From a virus (Duplodnaviria > Caudoviricetes): a stretch of 64,000 nt of DNA. This document shows positions 14,565 through 49,700 of the stretch, in pieces. Both the position numbers and the translations under genes were made by a program. Numbering within the stretch: the first letter of the stretch is position 1; each line of letters begins with the position of its first letter. The stretch covers positions 46,264-110,263 of IMG/VR virus record IMGVR_UViG_3300011977_000007; one strand, written 5' to 3'. A model generated the notes under the pieces. The model saw nothing but the letters and a program-made list of their open reading frames with translations. It had not been told where the DNA came from and ran no database searches.

Positions 14565-14629
14565 TACATAATAGGGTGGTGTTTTACCACCCTATATATT
14601 TTTAAATTTATGAAGGGAGATGATTTATA

Positions 14630-17600
14630 ATGGGAATTAATGCTCCAAAGCACGTAATACGAAAGCCTAAGCACATTACAAATCCGAAAGACATAGAATA
14701 TATATTGTCCTTAACAGAGGATGAGGCTGCAGCTAAAAATACGATAATGGATTTATTTGCCGATTTTGGAGACGGCCCAAGATTTAATACTTATGATATT
14801 ATAGAAATTCCTAAGGGATCTTATGGTAAAACTAAGAAGAATAAAAATCAATTTACAACTACAGTTGGATTATATGTATTTAATAAAGGCTGCATAGAAG
14901 ATATGTCTGATGTACTGGGATATATTAATGAGCCTATTACTGCTGATAAGTATGATGAAATAAATGAATTAGTATCATATGCTAAATTGGAAGATAAGAT
15001 CACTGTACAGCAGTTGAAAGATTTTATAATACAATCTCAGATTTATATGTCTTGTACTTCAGCATTATCACCATCTCATACAATGGTTCTTCTTTTAATC
15101 TCAGATAAAATTGAGGCTAGAAAGAAACAATTATTAAAAGATAAGTATGGCGAGGCTATAAAGAAGAAAGATATTAAAGCAATGGATGCTCTTGATAAAG
15201 AACTTCTTGATTATGCAAAGGAATTATTAAAAGATGATCCATCTGTTGATATGTTTAATTCTGGTGCTCGTTCATCATGGGGTAAAATTACTCAGCATAT
15301 ATAGTAATATGTGTGTTTCAATGGGGTTAATTGCAGGTAATACCTAAAGGCCTTACGCCAAAACGGAATTTGAAAAAATAAACGGTATGGTACGAAAGTA
15401 GAAAAAACGTAAGGATGCAATAAGCTGAAATAAAATTCTATTATAAATTATAATAGATGCTAAGTTGTAATAACAAGGGTTGTTCATGCAGCGAAATACC
15501 TAAGTCTATATAGATATGGTAAACGTTCAACGACTAGCCGATGACGTCGGCGGCTTTGCCTTAATGTAAAACCACAAGTTAATGGTGGAAGAAAAATCCC
15601 AGCCCTATAAATATAGGGATGACAAATAGTCTCTGCTACTACTTAATCGTAGTGACAACTTGAAATAATATAAGTTGTGTATATAGAGTTGCGTCTATAT
15701 ATAAAGATATAAAAATTATATAATATAAAAATTAAATATAGGTAGATAATTACAATTCTCAAAACACTTCATTAAATCTGTAATGAAAGGTGGTGAGGAT
15801 CGTGAGTAAAATAAATAACAATAAGCAATATTATAAAGGTCATAAATATAAAATATACCCAACTGAGGAACAAAAACAAAAGTTGGATAAATTTATAAAT
15901 CTTTATAGGTACGTTTATAATTGGGCTCTTGCTAAAGAACAAGAGATATATGAATCTTATAAAAATGGTGAAAGTGAAAAATCATTTTATACTTTCTTTG
16001 ATTTGTCAAAAATATTTGTACAATATAGAAATTCGCCTGAAAATAAATGGTTATTAGAATTACCCAACGGTACTGCATGTAATGCGATAAATGAATTGGT
16101 TACTGCATATACAAGGTTTTTTAATAATATTAGTGGGTATCCTAAATTTAAATCTAAGAAAAATTCTAAAAAATCATTTACAACTAGAAATGATAGATTT
16201 TATATAGATAAAAATACTGTAAAAATAGAAGGATTAGATCTAAATGATAGAATTCAATTAGGGTTTGATTCTGAATATAATAAAGATTCTGTTCATCATA
16301 ATACAGTTATATCTAAGGATACTATAGGTGATTATTATGTGTCATTTTGTACTATTGAAGAAAAAATAGAAATTGATAATTCTGATGGTGGGGTAATAGG
16401 TATTGATTTGGGAGTTAGAAATACATTAACAACATCTGTACCTATTGAAGGTGAATATTTTCATCATCAACCATTTAATAAGATTAGTAAATTAAAACGT
16501 AATATATCTAAATTACAAGTTAAAGTATCTCACGATCAATTACGTAGACTTAATGAAGCAAAACGTACGAAAACCAAGTACGAAGACATACCTAAAAGTA
16601 AACGAGAAATTAAGAGAGAAAAAATAATAAATAAGAAATACATTAAGATTCATAATATTAAAAATACATATTATGATACTATTATTAAACGTATTATGGA
16701 TACTAAGCCTAAGGCTGTTGTAATGGAAACTTTTGAATATAATAAAATCATACATTCACAAAAATATATGACTAAATATATGGTTGATACTTCATTTTAT
16801 GATATTACTCAAAAAACAAAGTATCAATGTAATAAAAGAAATATTCCATTTATTCAGGCACCAGTGCAATATGCATCATCCCAAATATGTAGTAATTGTG
16901 GAAATAGGATTAAAATAGGTAATAAAAAGATTTATAGATGCCCTATATGTGGTAATACGTTAGATAGAGATCTTAATGCTGCTTATAATCTCGAAGATTT
17001 TTATTATGACTATACTGGTACTAATAGATTAGTTGCTGTAAGTATAGCGTAATTCGTTTACACATTATTTAGGTTAAATAATGAATTTTAATGTACCGAG
17101 TTTTACTGTTCTCGGGATGTTAAGATCATTGAGAATTGTAAGTATATATCATTTATAAGCCCAACCAGCTTAACGTGTGGTATTCACACGGTTGATATAT
17201 GAATTATGATTTGTTGATATGATAAGTAAATCATAATTATATATTTACCTTTATAGGTTTACATATTATATGATTTTAAATACAGTAACAATTTTAAAAA
17301 CATGTATGTTTCTCGTGGTACTGTTAAATTGACCGATGGATCATTTGATATGGTTACTTCATCATATATATCTGGCCTATCAAAAGAAGATCTTGTTAAA
17401 GCAAATGATGCTGCTGTTGGTGGTCCTTATAGCCGTGCTGTAAAAACTAAAGAGGGTGGATATAATGAAAAGAAAATTCTCTATGGATTACAGCATGTAA
17501 AAGTATTACCTAAAGGATCTGATTGTGGAACTAATAGAACTATAGATGTGACTCTTACTAAAAAGAATATTAAGAATTGGATGTATAGTTTTGTTAAACA

Positions 17601-18264
17601 AGGATCTAATTTAATAGAAATTACATCTGATACTAAAGATAAATTTATTGGAAAAACTGTTAAAATGAGATATTTCTCATTATGTGAATCTAAAAATGGA
17701 ATATGCGAAAAATGTGCCGGAACCTTATTTAATCGTTTGGGAATTTCCAATGTAGGATTAGCAAGTGATATATTTGGTTCTAGACTAAAGAATACTTCGA
17801 TAAACTCTTGTCGCTTCATACTGGTAACAGTGTGTAGAAAATATCTTCTAATTGCTGGAACATGCTAAAGCTCTAATGCCTTAATGGAGAAGAAATTCAG
17901 AAATAAGTTTAGAGATGACTCATGGTGAAATAAAAGCTTATATATCTAATATATAGGTCCTAAAAGTTATTAAAAATGTATAATCAGCAGCGAAGCCTAA
18001 TAATAATTATTAGGAACGTTCAACGACTATCCCGTTTGGTGGTGAAATTCCACAATAGGAGTACGGCCTATATGGTGGGTGAGAATCCCTTAAATGGAAA
18101 TGGAGATATGTCCTCGTATACCTATACGGGGATAGTGATATAGTCTATTATCTAGAGAAATACTAGGTCTATACTAGCGTAAAACGTTAGCTGAGAGGAA
18201 GAGTTTCCATGTGGCTCAAATTAAATTTTCAGATATGGATATAGAAGATGCATTTAATTTATAA
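14630..18264 (+). CDS. phage RNA polymerase beta-prime C-terminal subunit (probably virion RNAP); spliced join(14630..15282,17286..17801,18198..18264), 411 aa
   Basis: Spliced product reads SGARSSWGNNFKNMYVSRG (region F), SRAVKT.EGGY (bridge helix), DCGT, C..C zinc site and NVG...NTSMKSFH (trigger loop); exon sum 1236 nt is a multiple of 3. Confidence 0.85.
15763..15774 (+). promoter_or_regulatory. putative late promoter for intron-encoded tnpB
   Basis: AACA CTTCAT TA, about 28 nt upstream of the tnpB start. Confidence 0.55.
15802..17052 (+). CDS. tnpB: TnpB RNA-guided endonuclease (IS200/IS605/IS607 ORF B)
   Basis: N-terminal KIYPTEEQ...RYVYNWAL; RuvC-I GIDLG, RuvC-II VMET, zinc finger SSQICSNCG...CPICG, RuvC-III DRDLNAA; RBS before GTG 15802 (ORF track starts at 15790). 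Confidence 0.92.
   Translation: MSKINNNKQYYKGHKYKIYPTEEQKQKLDKFINLYRYVYNWALAKEQEIYESYKNGESEKSFYTFFDLSKIFVQYRNSPENKWLLELPNGTACNAINELVTAYTRFFNNISGYPKFKSKKNSKKSFTTRNDRFYIDKNTVKIEGLDLNDRIQLGFDSEYNKDSVHHNTVISKDTIGDYYVSFCTIEEKIEIDNSDGGVIGIDLGVRNTLTTSVPIEGEYFHHQPFNKISKLKRNISKLQVKVSHDQLRRLNEAKRTKTKYEDIPKSKREIKREKIINKKYIKIHNIKNTYYDTIIKRIMDTKPKAVVMETFEYNKIIHSQKYMTKYMVDTSFYDITQKTKYQCNKRNIPFIQAPVQYASSQICSNCGNRIKIGNKKIYRCPICGNTLDRDLNAAYNLEDFYYDYTGTNRLVAVSIA
17053..17285 (+). ncRNA. putative omegaRNA scaffold / intron 3' domain
   Basis: About 230 nt structured non-coding stretch between the tnpB stop and the 3' splice site (hairpins CGTGTG/CACACG and AATTATGATTT/AAATCATAATT); expected position of a TnpB omegaRNA. 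Confidence 0.55.
17802..18197 (+). ncRNA. group I intron (ORF-less) in the trigger-loop Met codon
   Basis: P1 CGAU/GUCG with U.G at the 5' splice site; AATTGCTGG, AATCAGCAG, TTCAACGACTA, GATATAGTC; terminal G; splicing gives AT|G AAG AGT TTC CAT. Confidence 0.88.
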
Positions 18265-45824: not shown

Positions 45825-46364
45825 TTAAAACTCCACTCCCTGATTATGTTTATTAACAACTCTTGCTACTTCTACCTTAGTTCTATCATTTTTTACATTC
45901 TGATAATCGCATAAATTATCAAATATACGATCAAAATGATTATTGATGGCATTATTAATTTCGTTCTGCATACTGGAGACGCATGCAGATAAGTACATTG
46001 CAAAATCTGTATCCATATTAGCAGTATCTTTATTAAAATCACCGGTGTCATACAAGGCAAGCGCTGCTGGATCATGATCTCCGTATGTTACCTGAGATTT
46101 GTCTACAGGTTCTGATGGTTCTGTGCAATCATCGCAATATGCAACTTCTAAGTTTGCAATATCTTCATCAGAAGCAGCAATTGAAAAATGTCCATCACCA
46201 ACTGTATAAACAGGTGTATCTGGATCTAATGTACTGAAAAAGTGAGCGAGATTACCAGCTTTCATTTCTACATTACCCATTGTATCCTCACAATGATTTC
46301 CGCATTTGCACATATGTTCTACCTCCTTAGCTGTTTGTAAATCTTTCTGTTTTTTGTTTCTCAT
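45825..46364 (-). CDS. hypothetical protein
   Basis: GGAGG RBS; early promoter at 46420-46437. Confidence 0.55.
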   Translation of the reverse strand: MRNKKQKDLQTAKEVEHMCKCGNHCEDTMGNVEMKAGNLAHFFSTLDPDTPVYTVGDGHFSIAASDEDIANLEVAYCDDCTEPSEPVDKSQVTYGDHDPAALALYDTGDFNKDTANMDTDFAMYLSACVSSMQNEINNAINNHFDRIFDNLCDYQNVKNDRTKVEVARVVNKHNQGVEF

Positions 46365-46783: not shown

Positions 46784-49700
46784 TTATCTCATTGCTTGTA
46801 ATCTTTTAATTTTAGCAATTTCATCTTCTGTATATTCACATAATGATTTCATAGAATTAGCATTAATAATTGTATCTCTAGAATGCATCATATCCATATT
46901 ACAACGTCCATCATTTTTTGAAATAAACATTTGTCTTGGAGATATGATATTCTCTGCTGCTTCTATAAATGCTCTTGAATATAACAGAAGGATATTTAAT
47001 GTGTCCAGTATCTTCACACTAGTCGTTAATTAGTGCAGTTCTCTTACGAACTTCTATGGTTTTTCTCCATATGTTGAGACTATATCATCATCTCTATGAG
47101 ATGCTTCTCCACTTCGATTTAAAGGGTTCTCACCTACCTACTTAGGCCCTACTCCTGTTGACGAATTTCACGTCCCTTCCGGGGATAGTCGTTGAACTAT
47201 ATTAAAAATATAGCTGCTGATTATACATTGTTAATACTACTTAGCACTCTATACAGTATAGAGTTTTTTCTCAGCTTATAGCATCTTAGAACTTGTTTCT
47301 GTCTTTCGACTCCTAATTATAGGCATCTAAGCTTTAGCATTTCCCAGCAATTCAAAGAAGATACTTAATATATTACTATATTAAGCGGCAATACATAATT
47401 TACCATCGACCGTAAAACGTAAGCTAAGAGCATACGTTTTAAATAGACTATATCTTCATCCATTATATGGATGCTTTGCTTTTTGATTTAAATGGCCTTA
47501 TTGCTGCTTTGCCATACCTATATAATGGGCTCTACTCTAATAACTTGATAGTCGTTGAACTTTCTATAATAATAACTATTATAGTTTAGCTGCTGATTGT
47601 ACATTATTAATGAACTTTAGCATTTACATAATTCGACACAGCATTACATAAACTTTTTCTCAGCATAGTTCATCTTTAGAATTTTTTCTATCTTTCGATA
47701 ACATTCACGCTTATTATTACTAATTACGTTGTAGTTTCTAAAGCATTAATACCTCCCAGCAATTTACAAAGATTTAACCTATATATTACTATATAAGTGA
47801 CCCCGATGATTTGTTGAGTCTGCAGCAAGTAATTTTAATATTAACAGTGAAATACTCATGGTGTAATCCATATTAATTCCTACAACACGACAAAATAATA
47901 TTCCTCCGTAGCTAATTGTAGGGTTTCTGTTACAATATCTTCACACTAGTCGTTAATTAGCGCAGTTCTCTTATGAACTTCCTAGGTATTTCTCCTAGAG
48001 TTGAGACTATATCATTACCCATATATATATATGGGTATGCTTCCACTTCGATTTAAGAGATTCTCACTCACCTACTTAGGTCCTACTCCAATTGACGATT
48101 TTCACGTCCCGTATAGGGGATAGTCGTTGAACGTTCCTAATAAAATATATTAGGCTTCGCTGCTGATTATACATTGCATAATACCTTAGGACGTATCTAT
48201 TTTATAAATACGCTTTTATTTCACCATAGTACATCTCTTCTACTTGTTTCTATCTTTCGATACCTTATATATTATATAGGCTAGAGAGCTTTAGCATTTC
48301 CCAGCAATTCAAAAGCATTCGTACACCATATTACTATGATATACGGACTAACGTTAATCAGTACAGGTAATCCGCCATCTGAATCTTTAATTAAACCATC
48401 TATAATATCATAGACAATCTGATCAAATCCAATCTGTGCTTTATACCATTTCTTATATGCATCTGCATATGAAAAATTATAAGTCCTTACAAGTATATTA
48501 ATTATTACCTGTTGTAATAATTCACATAAGCCATGATATGGTAATTTTACCTGATCTGGCATTAAATGTACATCTTGTCTAATAACCGAACGGCTACTAA
48601 ACGAGTCGGCGGGTTCACATAGGTCGTTAATCTATGCAGTTTTCTTATGAACTTCTCTAGGTGTTACCTAGAAGCCCAGACTATATCACATACCTTATCT
48701 TATAAGGCATCTTTCTTTTTCGATTTAAGGGGTTCTCACCCACCACTTGGCCCTACTCCTGTTGGCATTTTATTAAGGGCTGCCCAATGGGATAGTCGTT
48801 GAACGTTCCTAATAAAATATATTAGGCTTCGCTGCTGATTATACATTGCATAATACCTTAGGACGTATATCAATATATACGCTTTTATTTCACCATAGTA
48901 CATCTCACTAATTATTTCTATCTTTCGATGCCCTATATAGAAGAGGGATAGTGAGCTTTAGCATTTCCCAGCAATTTAAAAAGATTCACGCACTATATTG
49001 CTATAATACGTGGGCTGATGATAGTTAACCTACCCATTTTGTTCACATAGGTCGTTAATCTATGCAGTTCTCTTATGAACTTCTCTAGTTTTTCTCTAGA
49101 TGATCAGATTATATCATTATACTTTATTCAAGTATTCTTCCACTTTGATTTAAGGGATTCTCACCCACCACTTGGCCCTACTCCTATTGCTGAATTTCAC
49201 AGCCCTTCCGGGGATAGTCGTTGAACGTTCCTAATAAGATATTAGGCTTCGCTGCTGATTATACATTATACGTTATTTAGGACGTATATAATATATACGC
49301 TTTTATTTCACCATGTAACATCTCTCTACTTGTTTCTGAATTTCTTCACCTTATTATAGGCTAGAGAGCTTTAGCATTTCCCAGCAATTCAAAAGATTAT
49401 TCGACACTGTGTTACCACAATGAAGCGGCTTAGATACAAACCGATCGAAGATCTTAAATCTCCTTTTTTACCTTCAAGAATTTCTTTAAGCTCAGTATAT
49501 AAAGCATTAAATTCAACCTGAATATCGTATAATACTTCATATTTATTTTTCTTTTGTCTATCTGGTACTAATTTATCATTATTAGCCTGATATACTAAAT
49601 GAGCTAAAAGATTATAATTCTCATTAGTTTTTTCATATTTAAGACTACCAGCATTATCCAATTTGGTAGGTCTTAATAATGTAGTAAATACAGGAATGGA

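Follow-up and report, generated by a model that had tools for sequence, protein, structure and literature searches.

Nested long-range helices and a candidate internal late promoter in a predicted TnpB-only IStron of an AR9-like jumbo phage

Results

A tnpB-bearing intron interrupts a virion RNA polymerase gene

The DNA analysed here (the window) is a stretch of 64,000 nucleotides, positions 46,264 to 110,263 of the 110-kb IMG/VR viral record IMGVR_UViG_3300011977_000007. The host is an uncultured pig-gut jumbo phage, and the gene in question, an AR9-like virion RNA polymerase (RNAP) gene, is interrupted by an IStron-type intron that carries tnpB. Two open reading frames (ORFs; 14630–15304 and 17302–17868) were recognized by tblastn and alignment as two parts of the homologue of the AR9/PBS1 virion RNAP subunit gp264. 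Exon 1 of this β´-like subunit gene (14630–15282; the coordinates are those of the window and the features lie on the plus strand unless stated otherwise) was delimited by tblastn to the AR9/PBS1 RNAP subunit genes and ends with TGGGG. The whole intron comprises 2003 nt (15283–17285), as defined by the AR9 alignment, an intron-less allele and the ends of related elements. In the alignment with AR9 gp264, the exon junction reads SGARSSWG followed by NNFKN. The boundary is ambiguous by a single T, and an intron placed at 15284–17286 leads to an identical mRNA. In one intron-less DNA contig from a pig-gut metagenome, 15282 and 17287 are connected through a single G (TGG GGG AAC), and a second, more diverged intron-less metagenome contig reads TGGGGTAACTTC... 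at this site. These metagenomic alleles, in which the RNAP-gene junction is in frame, confirm the intron boundaries.

Between the two exons lie approximately 420 nt of structured RNA, tnpB and a 233-nt non-coding tail. The tail terminates in AAATACAG (17278–17285), and the 3´ splice site follows the terminal G at 17285. The last four nucleotides of the intron are ACAG in the window and ACAG or GCAG in the relatives; in every relative, the 5´ exon ends with GG and the intron with (A/G)CAG. The final nucleotide of the 5´ exon is thus G (GG) in all copies examined, including the window (15278–15283). The 5´ exons of group I introns usually end in U. No convincing P1 pairing, or internal guide sequence, was found for the G-ending 5´ exon.

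The 5´ part of the intron (15283–15701) is a group I ribozyme that extends from P1 to P9.2, as defined by RNAalifold covariation and by a homologue in Rfam. The P7 strands are GACUA (15532–15536) and UAGUC (15627–15631), and the P9.2 hairpin (15680–15701) presents the conserved loop GUUGCG. The RNAalifold consensus of six relatives contains 87 pairs, 48 of which show compensatory changes, and P3 to P9.2 are supported by covariation. The ribozyme is 65–80% identical to the sequence that directly precedes tnpB in numerous viral and metagenomic loci, and its homologue in L006 (loci other than the window are referred to by such labels) passes the Rfam model Intron_gpI (RF00028) with 59.8 bits. In L175, the P9.2 loop GUUGCG is complementary to a CAACGC directly before the terminal CAG (approximately 1402–1407 and 2913–2918 of that locus). 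This complementarity is not found in the window, and it may be due to chance or to a lineage-specific contact.

The 416-residue TnpB (15802–17052) was assigned by the Pfam families Cas12f1-like_TNB and HTH_OrfB_IS605 and by the TnpB structures 8iaz and 8h1j in the PDB. The gene is intact, and the PDB alignment places the RuvC-type motifs IGIDLG, VMET and DRDLNAA as well as a CxxC...CxxC zinc finger. Judged from the sequence, translation most likely starts at the GTG at 15802 rather than at 15790, where the first GTG in frame is found; the 416-residue call is also the one made in a 98% identical relative. The 420-residue product of the longer ORF has no exact match in the protein collection. 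No ORF for tnpA, or any ORF other than tnpB, is present within 15283–17285. ORF A is absent from many described IStron copies (PMC4227781), and its lack therefore does not bar the element from membership. With a group I ribozyme, tnpB and a scaffold for the guide RNA (omegaRNA), the element is predicted to be a TnpB-only IStron that resembles group B (IS607-type).

Downstream of tnpB, the omegaRNA contains a nexus-like hairpin (17093–17118) that is conserved in all relatives. Its loop CUGU (17106–17109) is complementary to the terminal ACAG of the intron (17282–17285). In L005, the nexus loop is CUGC(U) and the tail is (A)GCAG, which constitutes a compensatory change. A three-way junction (17143–17200) and a terminal hairpin (17201–17237) are predicted in the following segment (17143–17237) both with and without the arms described below, and the stem of the terminal hairpin covaries in L170, L174 and L171, as read by eye. 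The first bases of exon 2 (17286–17305) presumably serve as the guide, the length of which is taken from TnpB biology (10.1101/2023.11.20.567912). One intron-less pig-gut allele carries G, not T, opposite the first guide position (TGGGG-G-AACAAT), which may reflect either simple polymorphism or evasion of TnpB. The RAGATH-18 model (RF03064) matches directly downstream of tnpB in L151 (3783–3844), L135, L133, L088 (2586–2647), L006 and L014, and RAGATH-18 seems to be the omegaRNA core in those phage IStron relatives. The model has no match in L005, nor in the window even at E<=10, as both have diverged beyond it; the GGAG...UGAA resemblance of the window to RAGATH-18 is apparent by eye only.

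Three nested helices connect the flanks of tnpB

The initial annotation had placed three nested long-range complementarities around tnpB, and direct reading of the strands located all three of them where it had put them. Arm A, the outer helix of the inverted-repeat (IR) stem, pairs 15712–15726 (AAAATTATATAATAT) with 17263–17277 (ATATTATATGATTTT) over 15 bp, including one G·U. The middle helix, arm B, consists of 9 bp between 15740–15748 (AGGTAGATA) and 17242–17250 (TATTTACCT), also with one G·U. The inner arm C is a perfect 13-bp helix between 15750–15762 (TTACAATTCTCAA) and 17129–17141 (TTGAGAATTGTAA). Arm C closes the loop that holds the promoter candidate, tnpB and the nexus hairpin, and its 3´ strand shares positions with the conserved (U/G)GAG motif at the start of the RAGATH-18-like omegaRNA core of the relatives.

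The minimum-energy co-fold of the two flanks contains exactly arms A, B and C and an additional 5-bp helix (AAATT with GGTTT). Arm B is lengthened to 12 bp in this structure (5´ strand 15736–15748), and the local hairpins of the 3´ region stay folded between the arms. The co-fold gain of 15700–15765 with 17053–17290 amounts to -26.5 kcal/mol. Natural segments of 66 nt from the window gain -5.7 ± 2.8 kcal/mol with a minimum of -16.0, and shuffled sequences gain -6.0 ± 2.4 kcal/mol; none of the 385 natural segments and none of the 300 shuffles reaches the observed value. The plain duplex energy of 15690–15789 against 17053–17290 is not significant (z-score -1.0), and the co-fold gain was used instead because a plain duplex cannot bridge the omegaRNA domains. 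A lone perfect 13-mer inverted repeat at a spacing of 500–2500 nt is not exceptional: 19 overlapping, or approximately 14 distinct, matches were counted, versus approximately 15 expected by our own estimate for a window of 29% G+C. The nested set of three arms exceeds chance.

The outer and inner helices are maintained by covariation

Relatives were collected by scans of IMG/VR and JGI, which returned elements with 24–43% TnpB identity, and nearer ones were obtained by contig look-ups and a protein search that yielded more than 100 relatives. TnpB identity to the window is 98% in L173, 71% in L166, 69% in L170, 61% in L174, 59% in L171, 54% in L175, 52% in L176 and L179, 48% in L178, 45% in L180 and 43% in L005. 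The relatives are inserted at the same RNAP site, in genes of RNAP β´-like and β-like subunits, in DNA polymerase B and in other genes.

Arms A and C are present in 11/11 of these lineages (43–98% TnpB identity) with unrelated sequences. In all relatives, arm A stops 0–8 nt before the terminal (A/G)CAG, and the 3´ strand of arm C comes after the conserved nexus-like hairpin. Arm A, which is AU-only in the window, reads TGGCTCCCGTTTT/AAGGCGGGAGCCA in L005, and its sequence is wholly different in L005, L175, L176, L178 and L179; the helices reach 17–33 bp in L176, L178 and L179. Arm C has acquired paired insertions and substitutions in L171, L175, L176, L178, L179 and L005. In the close relative L173, the G·U of arm A is replaced by G-C and that of arm B by A-U. 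Arm B itself was found only in the window and L173, with a 7-bp remnant in L170, and is a lineage-specific helix.

Pairs of cognate 5´ and 3´ flanks are more stable than swapped pairs over the whole region (-20.2 versus -9.8 kcal/mol), for arm A (-18.1 versus -11.1 kcal/mol) and for arm C (-17.2 versus -11.2 kcal/mol). In the alignment of the six closest elements (A5), 92% of the cells are paired, compared with 41–49% when the partners are slid. Arm A is paired in 100% of the cells in six close relatives and has two compensatory pairs of columns. Cognate helices also bracket tnpB in distant subfamilies (L088, L133, L135, L138, L151, L021, L026, L071 and L082). The G·U pairs of the arms can form only in the sense-strand RNA. 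The compensatory changes across relatives, which the initial annotation had named as a check, mark arms A and C as helices of the RNA that loop out tnpB; the arms stop 3–8 nt short of the terminal G.

One low-depth metagenome contig joins 15793 to 17130 over the 4-nt repeat TGAG. It has lost tnpB and the nexus hairpin and retains the ribozyme, all 5´ arms and the 3´ strand of arm C. Such a deletion form would be a mini-IStron, like the BcISt1 copies that lack ORFs.

A candidate late promoter and a hairpin adjoin the inner arm

Directly after the last upstream strand, that of arm C, lies the AACA-N6-TA motif AACACTTCATTA (15763–15774), in agreement with the initial annotation. The late promoters of AR9 have the consensus AACA-N6-TA/G, the last base of which is the transcript start (PMC5312081); this consensus was taken from the publication, as the AR9 record annotates early promoters only. 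The motif is an exact match to it and is a candidate AR9-type late promoter with a predicted start at A15774. The window holds 65 matches to the motif, and 10 of them have a same-strand start no more than 80 nt downstream, where approximately 3 are expected (Poisson probability approximately 0.002, by our own estimate). The spacing between motif and start is 28 nt for the GTG at 15802 and 19–31 nt for the other motif-bearing genes of the window, several of which have a shared context. The motif adjoins arm C in 8/10 lineages of the subfamily, in which AACA and TA are invariant while the arms and the hairpin described below diverge. Among the distant TnpB loci, a motif within 70 nt was found in only 4/98. 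In L166, AACACTTAAGTA stands ahead of the host RNAP gene itself.

Two relatives, L088 and L014, have sigma-70 promoters with 11/12 matches in the same place, after the 5´ arms and ahead of the ribosome-binding site of tnpB. L014 additionally contains a small divergent minus-strand ORF (2230–2495) between the 5´ arm and tnpB, which by eye resembles a ribbon-helix-helix regulator, and its sigma-70 promoters with 11/12 matches stand back to back between this ORF and tnpB.

A hairpin formed by TTCATTA and TAATGAA (15768–15787) straddles the predicted start. It adjoins, and does not cover, the Shine-Dalgarno core GGTGG (approximately 15789–15793, within AAAGGTGGTGA). The hairpin covaries, reading CTTTCATA/TATGAAAG in L175, L176 and L178 and CTTTCGTA/TACGAAAG in L179, and it can form in read-through RNA only. 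Among public sequencing runs, no RNA run matched more than approximately 5% of the sampled words of the stretch. The position, the exact match and the conservation suggest that the internal late promoter after arm C is fairly probably real.

Further introns and signals in the window

A second, ORF-less group I intron apparently interrupts the same RNAP gene at approximately 17808–18188, with exon 3 starting from approximately 18189. The match to AR9 gp264 ends with ...NTSINS (17807) and weakly resumes at 18190–18246 (AERKSFHVAQIKFSDMDIE). Within this gap, the segment 17892–18032 is ribozyme-like and 67% similar to the tnpB intron, and P7-like strands (CAACGACUA and AUAGUC) are present. On the minus strand, the region 47054–49353 contains three Rfam group I introns (47054–47411, 47982–48378 and 48657–49037), and the ribozyme of the tnpB intron also matches 47549–47795 and 49212–49353 by blastn, which outlines a cluster of related introns. 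Upstream of the RNAP gene, a hairpin followed by a run of T, resembling a terminator (GGGTGGT...ACCACCC, TATATATTTTT), lies within 14571–14629, only approximately 30 nt before exon 1, and no AACA-type motif was found between this hairpin and the start of exon 1.

Discussion

Relation to described IStrons

The helices had been presented as a built-in switch. In this respect they are not new, as they correspond to the IR stem-loop already described for IStrons. In all IStrons, P9.2 is succeeded by the insertion sequence (IS) part, with an IR stem-loop around the ORF region (Tourasse et al., 2014; PMC4227781). The IR stem of group B, which comprises BcISt1, CbISt1-4 (with copies on the Clostridium botulinum phages c-st and D-1873) and CsISt1, has 15–34 bp and is more than 80% AU; a partial direct repeat (DR) near the 3´ end of IStrons is able to pair with the 3´ IR, and ORF-less derivatives keep the stem (PMC4227781). 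The window element shares with group B the 5´ group I ribozyme, the IS part after P9.2, the AU-rich IR stem and the GG-ending sites, and copies with ORF B only are likewise known among described IStrons. It differs in that the stem is split into two to three nested helices separated by omegaRNA domains, with the nexus inside arm C and the three-way junction and hairpin between arms C and A. Moreover, its 3´ end is (A/G)CAG and not CGG, its host is an AR9-like jumbo phage and its target is an RNA polymerase gene. The 3´ terminus is TCAG in group A (PMC4227781), and the scaffold of CboIStron ends with UCGG (10.1101/2023.11.20.567912). In the window element, a GG target like that of group B occurs together with a CAG end like that of group A.

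The competition of splicing and guide RNA for the same 3´ sequence, on which the initial annotation had built, is likewise published. Splicing and omegaRNA maturation are mutually exclusive, and a pseudoknot of the nexus loop overlaps the nucleotides of the 3´ splice site (Zedaveinyte et al., 2023; 10.1101/2023.11.20.567912). Of the right end, splicing requires only the last 18 nt, and the stability of the last omegaRNA hairpin sets the fate of the transcript (Mortman and Sternberg, 2026; PMC13521648). As in CboIStron and CseIStron-1, the intron and the guide scaffold share their 3´ sequence in the window element, a predicted pseudoknot lies over the 3´ splice site, the final approximately 18 nt of the right end would complete the structure of the intron, and any one RNA would have only one of the two outcomes. 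In those two systems the balance operates within one transcript made from synthetic promoters, and an internal phage promoter or start hairpin is not described; the window element, unlike them, is without tnpA.

A counterpart to the promoter and hairpin is provided by the phage T4 introns. I-TevI and I-TevII as well as I-TevIII have an intron-internal late (for some, middle) promoter directly upstream of the ORF (PMC2988022). A hairpin at the ribosome-binding site forms in the read-through pre-mRNA only, since late transcripts start inside it; ribosomes are thereby kept out so that the intron splices, and translation is allowed from the late transcripts (PMC2988022). The predicted start in the window similarly falls inside a hairpin near the ribosome-binding site. 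In contrast to T4, the hairpin abuts the Shine-Dalgarno core and does not fully cover it, the ORF encodes TnpB with a guide RNA and not a protein-only homing endonuclease, and the promoter is of the AR9-like AACA-N6-TA type. In AR9, g190 is an intron-borne gene with its own promoter inside the late gene g189 (Lavysh et al., 2017; PMC5312081). Both cases concern a group I intron gene of an AR9-type jumbo phage with its own phage promoter (a candidate one here), but g190 is served by an early promoter and does not encode TnpB. The helices and the splicing/guide conflict are therefore already known, and what is possibly new is the conserved promoter with the start-site hairpin at the edge of the IR stem.

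Proposed mechanism

The anatomy and boundaries, the significance of the arms, their covariation and the conservation of the motif are computed results; a requirement of the helices for splicing, activity of the promoter and different fates of two transcript classes are inferred. In the RNAP pre-mRNA, which would start upstream, the 5´ arms follow directly after helix P9.2 of the ribozyme and would pair with the linker behind the nexus hairpin (arm C) and with the 3´ tail region (arms B and A). This pairing would loop out approximately 1.5 kb and bring the terminal ACAG to within a few bases of the core of the ribozyme, which would allow splicing, and it would at the same time keep the tail out of the omegaRNA pseudoknot with the nexus loop. 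Transcripts from the probable late promoter directly after arm C would lack the ribozyme, every 5´ arm strand and half (the 5´ one) of the start-site hairpin; because these are missing, the short transcripts would serve only as tnpB mRNA and guide-bearing omegaRNA precursor. An IR-stem clamp for splicing, combined with an internal late promoter that separates off the guide RNA, is the explanation towards which we lean overall. The full two-transcript partition goes further and is offered tentatively, as a possible but doubtful account of how phage IStrons of this lineage solve the splicing/guide-RNA conflict. In such a partition, the nested clamp helices would commit the pre-mRNA to splicing and the hairpin would dampen translation of tnpB, and the short transcripts, which form neither structure, would be committed to TnpB and omegaRNA.

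According to the initial annotation, the upstream arms sequester the omegaRNA. This part of the proposal is only partly supported: in the models, the arms pair with the linkers between the stems and with the 3´ tail, and not with the omegaRNA stems themselves. The arms look like a clamp that would draw the tail to the ribozyme and away from the pseudoknot, not like one state of a two-state switch. The better-supported rival of splicing is the pseudoknot of the nexus loop CUGU with the terminal ACAG, which is known biology and shows a compensatory change in L005. Partners for the 3´ strands of arms C and A within the omegaRNA were also considered (the helix GUAAGUAU/AUAUUUAC and the pairing of the two 3´ strands with each other), and in the window they are no better than shuffles. 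Evidence for a two-state switch from such internal partners was dropped, given these shuffle-level values and an ensemble without a dominant partner.

Several observations weigh against a clamp combined with an internal promoter. In the predictions, the presence of the arms leaves the nexus hairpin, the three-way junction and also the terminal hairpin folded, with 44/78 minimum-energy pairs of the omegaRNA-only fold persisting, and the omegaRNA-only ensemble offers no dominant alternative partner for the three 3´ arm strands. Because the stems are left intact and the 3´ strands lack a dominant partner, TnpB might bind the pre-mRNA as well. The search of 14900–17700 against Rfam returned neither a group I nor an omegaRNA family, even at E<=10. 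The motif consists of six fixed bases only, with a modest enrichment in the window (10 versus approximately 3), and homologous elements could have conserved it for a different reason. The internal promoter is plausible and conserved in 8/10 lineages, but L174 and L171 keep the arms and are without the AACA motif. The start-site hairpin is weak in the window (-7.4 kcal/mol, z-score -0.6). Finally, the virion RNAP gene is probably itself late; in that case, both promoters would fire together and would produce a fixed partition and no regulated choice.

Alternative explanations

In one alternative, the arms are merely the ordinary IR stem with which every ORF-carrying IStron has to return its 3´ splice site to the core. 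The fate of the RNA would then be set without any promoter partition, through competing folds and the binding of TnpB, as it is in CboIStron; tnpB and the omegaRNA would come from unspliced pre-mRNA, and AACA-N6-TA would be kept for some other reason. The IR stem is indeed family-wide (PMC4227781), the published mechanism functions without need for a second promoter, the motif is short and two lineages (L174 and L171) do without it. However, this account leaves aside the invariant AACA and TA that persist at a fixed distance in 8/10 lineages despite diverging flanks, the sigma-70 promoters close to consensus that L088 and L014 carry at this place, and the covariation that maintains a hairpin possible only in read-through RNA. 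We consider it unlikely, though a serious contender.

The repeats could alternatively act in the DNA, where they would be cruciforms inherited from the IS part or sites for recombination or a transposase. Terminal or subterminal repeats are present in IS elements, ORF excision of BcISt1 was seen at IR/DR motifs (PMC4227781), and the metagenome contig with tnpB deleted between short repeats ends exactly at arm C. This explanation is nevertheless very improbable: the repeats are nested within the element instead of being terminal, a transposase gene is absent, and the distance to the terminal G is constant. In addition, the T opposite G in arms A and B pairs in sense RNA only, and RNA pairing is kept by compensatory and G·U-to-Watson-Crick changes. 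Chance matches in AT-rich DNA would account for single 13-mer inverted repeats, which occur at the expected rate, and for the unexceptional plain duplex energy, but not for a nested co-fold gain that 0/685 controls reach or for the same architecture with different sequences in all relatives. The co-fold controls, the cognate-versus-swapped energies and the alignment pairing rule this reading out, and we attach almost no weight to it.

Implications for IStron biology

IStrons are a model for one sequence that acts as transposon end, ribozyme and guide RNA together. If the clamp is indeed accompanied by an internal late promoter, the promoter and hairpin at the edge of the IR stem would join the strategy of T4 I-TevI with the IR stem of IStrons, and use of a native internal promoter would mean that transcript architecture, besides the folding equilibrium, sets the share of splicing versus guide RNA. 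If the promoter is not real, the element adds one more clear case of a design already known. The relatives form a natural variant series (43–98% TnpB identity) for the study of the clamp helices and the pseudoknot. If true, the proposed arrangement would explain how a TnpB element is tolerated in essential late genes of jumbo phages.

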